Shown: piece after piece, positions 48,548 to 51,724 of the stretch
Layout: every line of letters starts with the position of its first letter
How positions within the stretch are numbered: position 1 is the first letter of the stretch
Assembly (NCBI GenBank): GCA_041629655.1
Contig: JBFKMV010000001.1
Coordinates: forward strand, 8,075 to 72,074
Origin: Candidatus Polarisedimenticolaceae bacterium
Lineage (GTDB): Bacteria; Acidobacteriota; Polarisedimenticolia; Polarisedimenticolales; Polarisedimenticolaceae
Length of the DNA: 64,000 bases
Direction: 5' to 3'
Made by a program: the position numbers and the translations under genes
Notes under the pieces: model-generated
What the model saw: only the letters and a program-made list of their open reading frames with translations
What the model was told of the DNA's origin: nothing
The model's database searches: none

Positions 48548-49726
48548 ATGCCGCTACGGTTCTTGACTGCGGGCGAGTCGCACGGCCCGGCGCTGACCGT
48601 GATCGTCGAGGGGCTGCCCGCCGGCATTCCCGTGGACCGGGAGCGCGTCGACCGCGAGCTGCGCCGACGGATGGGCGGCCACGGGCGGGGCGGGCGGATG
48701 AAGATCGAGCGGGACGCGGTGGAGATCCTGGGCGGGCTGCGCTTCGGCCGCACGCTGGGCTCGCCGGTCTCGCTGGTCATCCGGAACCGGGACTTCACCA
48801 ACTGGACCGAGGCGATGGACCCCGAACGGGCGCCGGACGACCCGGACCGCGCGCGCGTGGTCACGCGACCGCGCCCCGGGCACGCCGACCTGGCCGGGGC
48901 GCTCAAGTACGGGACCCACGATGCACGGGACATCCTCGAGCGATCGAGCGCGCGGGAAACCGCGGCGCGCACCGCCGCCGGCGCCCTGGCGCGCTGCCTG
49001 CTCGAGGCCTGCGGGATCGAGGTCACCAGCCGGACCCTGGCGGTGGGCGGCGTCAGCGCCCCGGAGGAGCCGGGCCAGGGCGAGTTCGACGCGTTGCTCG
49101 CGCTGCCCGACGACGCACCGATGCGCTGCACGGACCCCGAGCTGACCCGGGCGATGATCGAGGAGGTCGACCGGGCGCGCCAGGCGCGGGACAGCGTCGG
49201 GGGCGTGTTCGAGGTGCTGGCGCGCGGCGTGCCGCCGGGGCTCGGCAGCCACGTGCACTGGGATCGCCGGCTGGACGGCCGCCTGGGCGGCGCGCTGATG
49301 TCGATCCAGGCCGTCAAGGCGGTCAGCGTGGGGGAGGGCATCGAGGCCGTCGAGCGGTTCGGAAGCGTGCACCACGACCCGATCCACTACGACGCGCAGA
49401 CCCGCCGCTTCACCCGTCCCAGCAACCGCGCCGGGGGTGTCGAGGGCGGGATGTCCAACGGCGAGCCGGTCCGCGTCCGCGGCTTCCTCAAGCCGCTGGC
49501 CACGCTGCCGAAGCCGCTGCCTTCCACGGACCTGGTGGACAAGGCGCCGTTCGAGGCCACGCGCGAGCGGACGGACACCATTCCGATCGTGGCGGCGGGC
49601 GTCGTCGGCGAGGCGATGGTCGCGCTGGTGCTCGCGGACGAGTTGTTGATCAAGTTCGGGGGCGACCGGCTGGAGGAGACGCTGCGCAACCTGCGCGGCT
49701 ACCTGGAGGCCCTGCGCGGGTTCTGA
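48548..49726 (+). CDS. aroC: Chorismate synthase
   Basis: FLTAGESHGPAL, RPGHAD and SARETAARTAAG. Confidence 0.95.
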   Translation: MPLRFLTAGESHGPALTVIVEGLPAGIPVDRERVDRELRRRMGGHGRGGRMKIERDAVEILGGLRFGRTLGSPVSLVIRNRDFTNWTEAMDPERAPDDPDRARVVTRPRPGHADLAGALKYGTHDARDILERSSARETAARTAAGALARCLLEACGIEVTSRTLAVGGVSAPEEPGQGEFDALLALPDDAPMRCTDPELTRAMIEEVDRARQARDSVGGVFEVLARGVPPGLGSHVHWDRRLDGRLGGALMSIQAVKAVSVGEGIEAVERFGSVHHDPIHYDAQTRRFTRPSNRAGGVEGGMSNGEPVRVRGFLKPLATLPKPLPSTDLVDKAPFEATRERTDTIPIVAAGVVGEAMVALVLADELLIKFGGDRLEETLRNLRGYLEALRGF

Positions 49727-49755
49727 GACGGGGCGGGGCGCGCCGTCGTCGGTGC

Positions 49756-49789
49756 AAAAAAAACCGGGGCGGTGGCAAGCCACCGCCCC
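49756..49789 (-). terminator. Intrinsic terminator (minus strand)
   Basis: The minus strand reads GGGGCGGUGG-CUUG-CCACCGCCCC-GG-UUUUUUUU. On the plus strand there is no U-tract after the hairpin. Confidence 0.65.
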
Positions 49790-50283
49790 CTCCGGCCTCC
49801 GGTTACTCTCGCGAGCGAGAGGTGGGCAACCGGCCGCCGATGGAGCCGCCCGATCGCCCGAATTGTTTCCCCCCCGGTCATCGGGCGTTCGTGCGGTTCC
49901 CGAAAACATGGAACCCCTGTCGGGGTGACCCGGAATCTACGACGGGCGCGAAGAGGTGTAAAGCTTGGAGACAGGACGAAAAAAGACTTTTCGAGGACCG
50001 ATCGTGTCAGGCCTCGGGCCCTGGTCGCTCTCCCCGGTGAAAAACCACCCAAGCACGGGTCAAGACTCCAGCGGTGGGCTGATTGAGAACCCCGACCACC
50101 GAGGTGGCCCGGGTGTAAGGAGGGAGGAACCGATCCTCGCGGACCGGTTCGGAAGCATCGAGGTCGGGTCGCAATCCGCCGGGGAGAGCGAGCAGGGCCC
50201 GAAACGATGGCTGGCCTGGATTCAAATTCCCCCTCATCTCGAACGAGCCCGGACATACCGGGCGCTGTTGTCCGTGCCTGGCC
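49756..50283 (-). ncRNA. Large (about 530 nt) highly structured RNA candidate of unknown class
   Basis: It is bounded by a TTGACA-N18-TAGGGT promoter and an intrinsic terminator. The only ORFs across it are the 76-aa ORF 50007-50237 and the long antisense ORF 49699-51063, neither with a recognisable signature, and GC content is locally lower. A 22-bp long-range helix (50179-50200 with 50016-50037, one mismatch) is extended by a 6-bp outer helix. Several hairpins have GNRA loops, and one has a G-U pair, only when read on the minus strand. Confidence 0.4.
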
Positions 50284-50288
50284 GAGAC

Positions 50289-50318
50289 ACCCTACCCCCG
50301 GTCCAGAAGGATTGTCAA
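50289..50318 (-). promoter_or_regulatory. Sigma-70 promoter candidate for the large RNA
   Basis: Minus strand TTGACA (50318-50313), an 18-nt spacer, then TAGGGT (50294-50289). Confidence 0.4.
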
Positions 50319-50392
50319 GGGCAAAGTACAATATGTCGGCGCCGCTATGTCGGCGGCCCCAGGATGTAGTGGTGCCGTCCCGGAAGGTCGAT

Positions 50393-51724
50393 ATGGGCTC
50401 CGCGACGCTGGAAATCACCGCGCTGGCCGCCGGGGGACGGGGGGTGGCCCGGCGCGAGGGCCGCGTCTGGCTGGTCGAGGGCGGTCTCCCGGGAGACCGC
50501 CTGGTCGCCGAGCCGGTCCGGCAGCGCCCGCGGCTGGTCGAGGCCCGCGCGACGCGGGTGCTCCGGCCGGGCCCCGAGCGGCGAGACCCGCCGTGCCCGG
50601 TCCAGGAGCGCTGCGGGGGATGCCCGTGGATGCCGCTCGCGGAGCCCGCGCAGCGGACCTGGAAGCGGCGCCTGGTCGAGGACGCCCTGGCGCGCATCGG
50701 CGGCCTGAAGGGAGTGCCCGTGGAGCAGCCCGTGCCGTCCCCGCACCCTTTCGCGTACCGCAACAAGGTCGAATTCTCGCTCGGTCGCGACGAGTCCGGC
50801 CGCCGGGTGCTCGGGCTGCACGGCCGGCCGTCGGGGATCGTGGACGTGCCGTCCTGCGCGGTCCAGCACGCTTCGGCCGACGCGGTGCTGGCGAGCTGCC
50901 GCGAATTGCTGTCGGGCCCGGACGCGCCGCGCGACCCCTGGCTCGACGACCCCCGCGTCGAGCCCCGGATCGTGATCCGCAGGTCCGAGACCACGGGAGA
51001 GCTGCTGGTGGCGTTCCGGGGTGGCCTCGAGCCGTTCCCCGCCGCGCGAGCGATCGCGCGCACCCTGACGGCGCGTCACCCGGAGCTGGTCGGCGTGGTG
51101 CGGCTGGTGGCTTCCGCCGGCCGCCGGGGCGGGACGCGCACGCGGCGCCTGGCGGGACGCGGGTGGCTCGCCGAGACGCTCGGTGGCACCGCGTTCCGAT
51201 TGCCGGCGGCGACGTTCTTCCAGATCAACACCCGGGCCGCCGAGCGACTGGTGGAGCTGGTCCGCGAACTGGCGGGGCCCGTGACCGGCCGGCGCGTGCT
51301 CGACCTGTACGCGGGCGTCGGGGTGTTCGGCCTGGCGCTGGCCCGCACCGGCGCCCGGGTGCGACTCTGCGAGGCCGACGCCGACGCGCTGCGCTGCGCC
51401 GCGCGCGCCGCCACGGACGCCGGGCTCGAGGTCGAGCTGCTGCGGGCGGACGTGGGGGAGTTCCTCCGCCGCGACGAGGGCGGAAAAGCCCCGGAGCTGC
51501 TGCTCGCCAACCCTCCGCGCACCGGGTTCGGGCGCGGCGTGGGCACCGCGGTGGCGCGCCTCGCCGCGCGCCGGATCGTGATCGTGTCGTGTGACCCGGC
51601 GACGCTGGCGCGAGACCTGGGACGACTGGTCGGACGCGGCTACGCGGTGCGGCGGGTGGTCCCGGTCGACCTGTTTCCACAGACGCCGCACGTCGAGACC
51701 GTGGTGCGGCTCGACCGCGCCTGA
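50393..51724 (+). CDS. TRAM/RumA-type 23S rRNA (uracil-5)-methyltransferase family protein
   Basis: A TRAM-like N-terminus, an Fe-S Cys cluster CPVQERCGGCPWM, a SAM motif VLDLYAGVGVFG, and NPPRTG with the catalytic SCDP. Confidence 0.8.
   Translation: MGSATLEITALAAGGRGVARREGRVWLVEGGLPGDRLVAEPVRQRPRLVEARATRVLRPGPERRDPPCPVQERCGGCPWMPLAEPAQRTWKRRLVEDALARIGGLKGVPVEQPVPSPHPFAYRNKVEFSLGRDESGRRVLGLHGRPSGIVDVPSCAVQHASADAVLASCRELLSGPDAPRDPWLDDPRVEPRIVIRRSETTGELLVAFRGGLEPFPAARAIARTLTARHPELVGVVRLVASAGRRGGTRTRRLAGRGWLAETLGGTAFRLPAATFFQINTRAAERLVELVRELAGPVTGRRVLDLYAGVGVFGLALARTGARVRLCEADADALRCAARAATDAGLEVELLRADVGEFLRRDEGGKAPELLLANPPRTGFGRGVGTAVARLAARRIVIVSCDPATLARDLGRLVGRGYAVRRVVPVDLFPQTPHVETVVRLDRA

Follow-up and report, generated by a model that had tools for sequence, protein, structure and literature searches.

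A gap of 645 nt (49727-50371) separates aroC from an rlmD-like 5-methyluridine (m5U) methyltransferase gene in the 64,000-nt stretch of contig JBFKMV010000001.1 of Candidatus Polarisedimenticolaceae bacterium analysed here, which we call the window. This gap probably holds two tandem noncoding RNA (ncRNA) genes on the minus strand, units A and B, that are specific to this uncultured lineage of Acidobacteriota. Unit A spans about 50282 to 50014 and has a conserved core of ~190 nt; unit B, downstream of it, spans about 49927 to 49756 with a conserved core of ~170 nt. They represent a real new RNA family or pair of families, consisting of a lineage-specific orphan structured ncRNA and a gene resembling those of small RNAs (sRNAs). 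An initial annotation, made from the letters of this DNA alone, had described a single ornate RNA of ~530 nt. Its structured ncRNA locus on the minus strand stands; its single unit is not supported, given two modules, a variable spacer, an internal promoter and a separable unit B. The two cores fall below OLE, GOLLD and ROOL in size, and '530-nt ornate RNA' overstates size as well as unity.

Relatives of the element were reached through AroC. An identical AroC protein occurs on eight contigs of metagenome-assembled genomes (MAGs) of the same species, and the gap is 100% identical wherever these contigs cover it. When genomes were scanned with AroC, homologous DNA followed aroC in a single relative, a MAG of the Acidobacteriota with an AroC 72% identical and a truncated contig. 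None of the other 79 aroC loci, from other phyla, had a homologue beside aroC as judged by hidden Markov models of the family, and a Thermoanaerobaculia locus (L021) has no gap, a 582-amino-acid (aa) open reading frame (ORF) beginning 11 nt after aroC. Among the many AroC sequences of 70-78% identity that a protein search returned, one bears the name Candidatus Polarisedimenticolaceae. Eight of the sequences were traced to contigs, and in each case aroC is followed by 600-950 nt devoid of genes, for which nhmmer gives an alignment with the gap of the window. A pattern taken from a nine-sequence alignment, ACCCGTGCNNGGG-N10-CCGGRGAGAGC, found 70 further loci in metagenomes from soil, rhizosphere and marine or estuarine sediment, and had no match in the viral contigs that were scanned with the same core pattern; nhmmer recovered all members. 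The set analysed below comprises 84 related loci from relatives of Polarisedimenticolaceae in soil and sediment metagenomes. As far as sampled, the element is restricted to these relatives within the Acidobacteriota.

The element is single-copy at each locus and, wherever flanks are present, has an rlmD-like gene on its 5' side and aroC on its 3' side, both on the opposite strand. The RNA is nevertheless kept where the rlmD-like gene is replaced (L089, L090), where an RND efflux operon displaces aroC by 7.6 kb (L165) and where aroC is absent (L168), so the RNA locus is independent of its neighbouring genes. The replacement at L089 (6111-9130) and L090 (6044-7577) consists of genes for 198-aa and 788-aa proteins, both of unknown kind, the 788-aa protein having no Pfam match. 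The ~7.6-kb operon at L165 (5556-13000) recurs between unit B and aroC in L106, L108 and L116, all of one soil clade; its ORF translations read as an RND-type efflux pump, a membrane-fusion protein, an outer-membrane factor and a 608-aa protein.

The fold of unit A was assessed in an alignment (A3) of 51 distinct sequences running from the predicted start at promoter P1 to the 3' arm of helix P1. Helices supported by covariation in relatives, the outcome on which the initial annotation had beforehand let its proposal depend, were found throughout. In helices P1, P2 and P2b together, 92.8% of 1988 cells are paired, compared with 38-46% when the partner strand is slid; the covariation score is 0.254 versus 0.05-0.11 for slid partners, and 0/500 shuffles reach 0.254. 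Fifteen pairs are altered on both sides. Within P2, columns 155/320 (UG 19, GC 13, UA 7, AU 5) and 156/319 (UG 26, GC 14, CG 4) covary; P2b (UCGA/UYGA), the sole addition from a helix scan, is weakly supported. Hairpin P3 shows double compensatory changes at 8/8 predicted pairs in 34 sequences. In hairpin P4, 80.8% of cells are paired versus 32-50% with slid partners, nine of 11 pairs change on both sides, and 0/500 shuffles do as well (21 sequences). A short subfamily is without P3 and has a different P2 sequence in which pairing is kept. The long-range helix P1, reported in the initial annotation as 22 bp with one mismatch, extends to 24 bp; its 22-mer core occurs at these two sites only in 64 kb, where 0.02 would be expected by chance, and its central 15 bp (GCUCGCUCUCCCCGG / CCGGGGAGAGCGAGC) hardly vary.

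Conservation in unit A is highest in its joining strands, which read YCCYACCY from P3 to P4 and GCCYACCG-YUGGAGUCUUGACCCGUGCCN from P4 to P2. The near-invariant elements in them are two CCYACC motifs and GGAGUCUUGACCCGUGCC; the first CCYACC reads CCCUCC in the window and CCCACC or CCUACC in most relatives, and ACCCGTGC is invariant in 51/51 aligned sequences. The core of unit A folds as a rod of ~35 bp (P1 and P2) leading to a three-way junction, from which P3 and P4 emerge and whose joining strands are near-invariant. Not all of the structure drawn in the initial annotation is shared by relatives. A 6-bp outer helix (50218-50213/50013-50008) can form in the window, and it is there only that its duplex energy beats that of shuffled tails. 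Likewise, the GNRA hairpin loops are present in the window (50150-50127 and 49926-49913), and loop sequences vary elsewhere.

Strand is given by the exceptions to Watson-Crick pairing. The helices of unit A contain 222 G-U cells versus 32 A-C cells, and pairing is 92.8% in the sense versus 83.2% in the antisense orientation; the excess of G-U over A-C places the RNA on the minus strand of the window. This agrees with the strand chosen in the initial annotation, which had cited a G-U stem pair in its support; a G-U pair is indeed seen in the hairpin at 50150-50127. The minus strand of the region has a minimum free energy of -260 kcal/mol (z = -3.6) and the plus strand a z of -4.5; since the plus strand folds equally well, folding energy alone gives no strand.

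The minus-strand promoter proposed for the whole element, TTGACA-N18-TAGGGT, recurs as TTGAC[AC]-N16-19-TA[GT][GC][GC]T, 200-280 nt upstream of the core, in 61/84 loci, most of the remaining ones being cut by contig ends. Its consensus is TTGACA-N16-GGGGTA[G/T]GGT, with variable spacer sequence, and it would start unit A at ~50282. The leader that follows varies in length from 26 to 90 nt. In the window it carries GGCACGG (50277-50271) near its 5' end, which exactly complements the invariant CCGUGCC (50052-50058); GGCACGG is found at leader positions 4-8 in 19/51 members, and a marine clade has instead a leader hairpin loop, CCGGGUCC, that is complementary to the adjacent GACCCG. A pseudoknot between leader and internal loop could be formed in this way; the duplex is possible in about half of the members, with an energy no better than that of shuffles.

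Two further features of unit A were noted. GACCCG occurs twice (50165-50170 and 50056-50061), and either copy can pair with GGG 50048-50050, giving long-range P2 in one case and a local hairpin, CCC-GUGCCN-GGG, in the other; the three elements are invariant, so that covariation is uninformative about what could be an alternative fold. In addition, three pyrimidines, the Y in CUCYCCGG and the one in each CCYACC motif, alternate in concert between C and U, with the paired purine changing between G and A alongside (A3 columns 145, 210, 286 and 329, that is, window positions 50183, 50122, 50076 and 50033). A C.G-C / U.A-U base triple along the polypurine face of helix P1 would fit this pattern; only about two independent co-changes and two single changes were counted, and they may reflect shared ancestry.

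Unit B has a promoter of its own in sequence terms. Promoter P2, of the sigma-70 type, is the sole consensus promoter-like site across 49000-51000, where chance would give 0.1, and TTTACN-N16-18-TAnnnT is kept, with variable spacer sequence, in nearly all relatives that have unit B; transcription from it would start at ~49927. It is preceded in the spacer by a direct repeat, ATC[CG]GTCCT ... ATC[CG]GTC[CA]T, whose two copies begin 21 nt apart and whose end lies ~12 nt ahead of the -35 element. A looser form of the repeat is present in 13/29 distinct upstream regions of relatives. By analogy it looks like a putative activator or response-regulator site that would control unit B.

Of the three hairpins of unit B, the first (H1) is variable. 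The loop of H2, ACC[GA]GGGGGG (ACCGGGGGGGA), is conserved in all copies, on a stem with compensatory changes. All 12/12 pairs of the outer stem of H3 change on both sides, and its inner stem (CUCCC/GGGAG) is 88% paired. The strong terminator named in the initial annotation is conserved in relatives, being 97.5% paired across them with compensatory changes. Over the whole hand-specified structure of unit B, 78.5% of cells are paired versus 43-52% with slid partners, and 0/500 shuffles reach either the percentage paired or the covariation score. Such hand-specified structures were counted because RNAalifold on MAFFT alignments of P4 and of unit B gave little or nothing. Unit B, a short RNA delimited by its own promoter and by a Rho-independent terminator, has, on sequence evidence, the make-up of an sRNA gene.

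Unit B is not a constant companion of unit A. A short clade has it cut to ~100 nt, with H1 and H2 only, and it is absent from loci where just ~100 nt separate the core from the stop codon of aroC (L098, L111, L121, L145, L149, L150 and L162), a clade in which aroC is not preceded by a U-tailed terminator. Between the two units, relatives have from 0 to >190 extra nt of spacer. As unit A is kept in the clades that have lost or shortened unit B, unit B is a separable sRNA-like gene, and its modularity together with the variable spacer leads us to prefer two genes to a single RNA of 530 nt at this locus.

No known family accounts for either unit. An Rfam search, which the initial annotation had suggested as a check, gave only noise in the gap region at E<=10, no match at the gathering threshold either in the window or among 13 member loci, and no weak match at E<=5 that recurs across 12 small member loci. 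In the whole window (1-64000), Rfam 15 finds zero families and zero tRNA genes at the gathering threshold, and ARAGORN finds no tRNA and no transfer-messenger RNA (tmRNA); E. coli tRNAs, the positive control for Rfam, were detected. RNase P RNA (RF00010/RF00011) and 6S RNA (RF00013) are absent at E<=10 in the region and at E<=5 in the 12 members. ARAGORN and Rfam likewise find no tmRNA in the window, and Rfam finds no signal recognition particle (SRP) RNA in the window and member loci, in keeping with the view of the initial annotation that the element is none of RNase P RNA, tmRNA and SRP RNA. The Ms1 model (RF02566) gave one isolated match of 21.6 bits versus a threshold of 162 bits, and Rfam 15 was negative at gathering and E-value thresholds for OLE, GOLLD, ROOL, HEARO and raiA. 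No description of the element, or of any RNA for this lineage, was found in Rfam 15 or in the literature searched on Acidobacteriota and on bacterial ncRNA discovery.

With compensatory helices in homologues on one strand, the element is a structured ncRNA, and it most resembles orphan classes such as the raiA motif, HEARO, OLE, GOLLD and ROOL. Like them it is a stand-alone gene for a multi-helix RNA whose covarying stems surround highly conserved nucleotides in junctions and loops; its phylogenetic range is narrow, and its neighbours suggest no function. Unlike them it matches no model, has cores well below OLE, GOLLD and ROOL in length, and is strictly single-copy, syntenic and confined to relatives of Polarisedimenticolaceae. 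Unit B shares with trans-acting sRNAs, for example actinobacterial 6C RNA, its own promoter, a length of 100-200 nt, a homopolymer-rich apical loop, a GC-rich terminator hairpin with a U-tail and, in about half of relatives, an upstream repeat. It differs in matching no Rfam family and, from 6C RNA with its C-rich loops, in having a G-rich loop, which would pair with C/U-rich sites and not with Shine-Dalgarno sequences. Unit A recalls 6S RNA and Ms1 in its ~200-300 nt, its long helix of conserved sequence, its strong promoter and its housekeeping-type locus, and, as in 6S RNA, its 5' leader could be trimmed. Its helix does not, however, join the 5' and 3' ends, and it leads to a three-way junction with two hairpins instead of a central bubble and apical stem. 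RNase P RNA, tmRNA and SRP RNA are the usual identities of a conserved stand-alone structured RNA gene of a few hundred nt, yet there is no covariance-model or ARAGORN match here, and the P4 motifs, tRNA-like end, tag ORF and SRP domain IV were not seen when the initial annotation was made.

The most serious alternative to two genes is a single RNA of ~530 nt running from promoter P1 to the terminator, with A and B as domains and the P2-like motif as an RNA or regulatory element. We consider this possible, though doubtful. The units are adjacent and co-oriented in most relatives, the loop of unit B shares ACCGGGG with the 3' arm of helix P1, and CCYACC is present in both. Several points count against our main explanation in one part or another. 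No canonical U-tailed terminator is present after unit A in the window, so that transcripts from promoter P1 may run through unit B and yield a ~530-nt RNA. TAGGGT, the -10 element of promoter P1, is a weak match to TATAAT and was missed by a consensus scan, and both start sites as well as the 3' end of unit A are read off the sequence. The alignments of P4 and of unit B are imperfect, leaving 19-21% of cells unpaired. Moreover, the metagenome loci were selected by a pattern with ACCCGTGC..GGG..CCGGRGAGAGC, which makes the invariance of those columns partly circular; the nine AroC-found loci show the same invariant columns independently of the pattern. What speaks against a single RNA is the absence or truncation of unit B in clades with an intact unit A, a spacer that varies by >190 nt, and a promoter-like TTTACA-N17-TAnnTT in which the hexamers are kept and the spacing is fixed around a variable spacer, with the upstream repeat in about half of cases. 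A GC-rich hairpin just 3' of unit A in many relatives points the same way.

The other explanations are much less probable. Control in cis or by antisense of aroC or rlmD, through convergent transcription, read-through pairing or a protein-bound inverted repeat in the DNA, would fit an element that is convergent to aroC and back-to-back with the promoter and ribosome-binding site (RBS) of rlmD, next to an aroC without its own plus-strand terminator and, in the clade lacking unit B, with no U-tailed terminator before aroC. We regard it as quite improbable, given that the RNA outlasts the replacement of rlmD and the displacement or loss of aroC, that a strong terminator stops minus-strand transcription before aroC in most members, and that the G-U excess and compensatory changes favour a folded RNA over a DNA site. 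A riboswitch or leader would need a same-strand gene downstream; aroC is convergent, and no locus has a co-oriented gene there. A highly divergent member of a known family missed by the models (RNase P RNA, tmRNA, SRP RNA, 6S/Ms1, OLE, GOLLD, ROOL, HEARO, raiA or Y RNA) is very unlikely. Its single copy, fixed site in a housekeeping block and strong conserved promoter would suit such an RNA, and long closing helices are also found in 6S, Ms1 and Y RNAs; set against this are the negative searches described above, a core built as a three-way junction and not as a rod with a central bubble, and a similarity to E. coli 16S, 23S and 5S rRNA that is not above that of shuffles. Scarcely credible, finally, is a small protein gene (a 76-aa ORF at 50237-50007) or a miniature mobile element with the 24-bp arms as terminal inverted repeats. 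The 76-aa ORF and longer shadow ORFs do cross the region, and the long helix is a near-perfect inverted repeat. However, the 76-aa ORF begins in the variable leader with a start codon that is not conserved, relatives differ in the frame and strand of their open frames, the lengths of indels are not divisible by three, and the element occurs as one copy per window or locus in the same position and is absent from the viral contigs.

On the reading as two genes, unit A would be transcribed from promoter P1 and its ~190-nt core would fold after the variable leader. Variable helices around invariant junction nucleotides are typical of RNAs with a defined tertiary fold that bind a protein or ligand. 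In unit A, variable stems together with the invariant junction and internal-loop nucleotides and the 15-bp segment may likewise yield one tertiary fold that is recognised by a partner. It would then most likely act in trans, as a structured RNA or component of a ribonucleoprotein (RNP) that binds a protein, a ligand or another RNA. Unit B would be a separate transcript from promoter P2, possibly under control of a regulator, with the anatomy of a base-pairing sRNA in which the G-rich apical loop ACCGGGGGGGA is the likely seed for C/U-rich targets.

The two units may also be linked to each other. The loop of unit B begins with ACCGGGG, as found in the 3' arm of helix P1, and is hence complementary to the invariant 5' arm CUCCCCGG; unit A has two copies of CCYACC and unit B has one; and these shared motifs, with the GGCACGG/CCGUGCC complement of the leader, hint at a connection. 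At their most ambitious, they would make A and B a new tandemly encoded RNA-RNA system, in which unit A is a tertiary switch remodelled by unit B, a proposal we hold to be a long shot; the joint changes at the Y positions would also fit a pyrimidine-motif base triple on helix P1. Unit A would in that case be a sensor, ribozyme or RNP core whose internal loop GACCCGUGCC docks the leader GGCACGG or the CCGGGUCC loop, and competition of the duplicated GACCCG elements for one GGG would create a conformational switch. Unit B, made on demand from a promoter under control of a regulator, would use its loop ACCGGGGGGGA to mimic the 3' arm of helix P1 and invade CUCCCCGG, thereby remodelling or inactivating unit A.

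Acidobacteriota are abundant in soils and sediments, and to our knowledge their RNA biology is almost unexplored. The single copy and the fixed position in a housekeeping block (tsaE, nnr, aroC, rlmD, holB, tmk and ribF) make a conserved cellular role likely, and the RNA persists across relatives with AroC only 70-78% identical. The element adds a new family, or two, with which MAGs of Acidobacteriota can be annotated. The ~190-nt core is compact and well delimited, which suits it to structural work and to pull-down of partners, and unit B is a candidate regulated sRNA with an unusual G-rich seed. Were units A and B to interact, a structured RNA would be encoded beside its own RNA regulator, which is rare.

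Several more specific identities were considered and set aside. CCGACCU..CGAUG and GACCCGUG resemble 23S rRNA near U1939 and A2058; an rRNA mimic or RlmD-substrate decoy was rejected since the 528-nt region, when aligned locally to E. coli 16S, 23S and 5S rRNA, scores within the range of shuffles. A flavin mononucleotide (FMN) riboswitch came into consideration as aroC needs FMN and ribF is nearby; RF00050 is absent at E<=10 and there is no gene downstream. A Ro-binding helix as in Y RNA shares the 7-mer CUUGACC, with an opposite strand that is without GGUC-C-GA, and no Y_RNA match was obtained. The internal loop GACC/CCCGUGCCN was rejected as a K-turn since the order of its strands is unsuitable. 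Pairing of CYACC with GGURG of the P2 3' strand is not supported, 55-63% of cells pairing at two informative positions, and the top signals of a mutual-information scan for further pseudoknots mostly reproduce the split between the long and short subfamilies.

Table 1. Features of the aroC/rlmD-like gap and its borders, in window coordinates
Feature	Position	Strand	Remarks
aroC	48548-49726	+	
Intrinsic terminator of unit B	49756..49789	-	GGGGCGGUGG-CUUG-CCACCGCCCC-GG-U8; stem 49789-49766, T8 49763-49756
Hairpin H3	49792..49839	-	outer stem; internal loop GCCCACC 49827-49821; inner CUCUCG-CUCG-CGAGAG 49821-49806
Hairpin H2	49842..49900	-	inverted repeat; conserved loop UGACCGGGGGGGAAACAAU (49880-49862; G7 at 49875-49869)
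Hairpin ACCCC-GACA-GGGGU	49926-49913	-	
Promoter P2 of unit B	49934..49962	-	TTTACA 49962-49957, 17-nt spacer, TAGATT 49939-49934
Spacer between units	49963..50013	-	direct repeat GATCGGTCCT 50003-49994, TTTCGTCCT about 49981-49973
Helix P2 3' strand and helix P1 3' arm	50014..50050	-	P2 GGGUGGUUUUUCA 50050-50038; P1 CCGGGGAGAGCGACCAGGGCCCGA 50037-50014
Joining strand P4-P2	50051..50089	-	second CCYACC, CCCACC 50078-50073; GGAGUCUUG; invariant ACCCGUGC 50060-50053
Hairpin P4	50090..50113	-	length variable in relatives
First CCYACC motif, P3-P4 joining strand	50119..50124	-	A3 columns 208-213
Hairpin P3	50127..50150	-	GAACCGGUCC-GCGA-GGAUCGGUUC; contains G-U pair
Helix P2 5' strand, then GACC and UCGA (P2b 5' strand)	50158..50177	-	P2 GGAUUGCGACCC
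Helix P1 5' arm	50179..50202	-	UCGGGCCCUGCUCGCUCUCCCCGG; pairs with 50014-50037
Unit A 5' leader	50203..50282	-	variable; alignment A3
Promoter P1 of unit A	50289..50318	-	TTGACA 50318-50313, 18-nt spacer, TAGGGT 50294-50289
RBS (AGGA) and GTG start of rlmD-like gene	50355-50372	+	reads CCCAGGATGTNGNGGTG
rlmD-like m5U methyltransferase gene	50372 (called start)	+	GTG start

The gap differs in composition from its surroundings, as the initial annotation had noticed by eye; its GC content is 0.60-0.67 versus 0.72-0.82 in the flanks, and the region is unique within the window. A minus-strand block conserved 5' of promoter P1, CACCCCCACATCCTGGG, corresponds to AGGA-N4-7-GTG of rlmD on the plus strand. 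Being the RBS and start of rlmD, this block is not part of the RNA, and the rlmD promoter must be back-to-back with promoter P1; the plus strand carries TACAAT at 50327-50332. On the plus strand at 49727-49765, A8 precedes the hairpin shared with the terminator of unit B and CUCCGG follows it, leaving aroC without a terminator of its own. Transcripts of aroC may thus read through antisense to units B and A towards rlmD.

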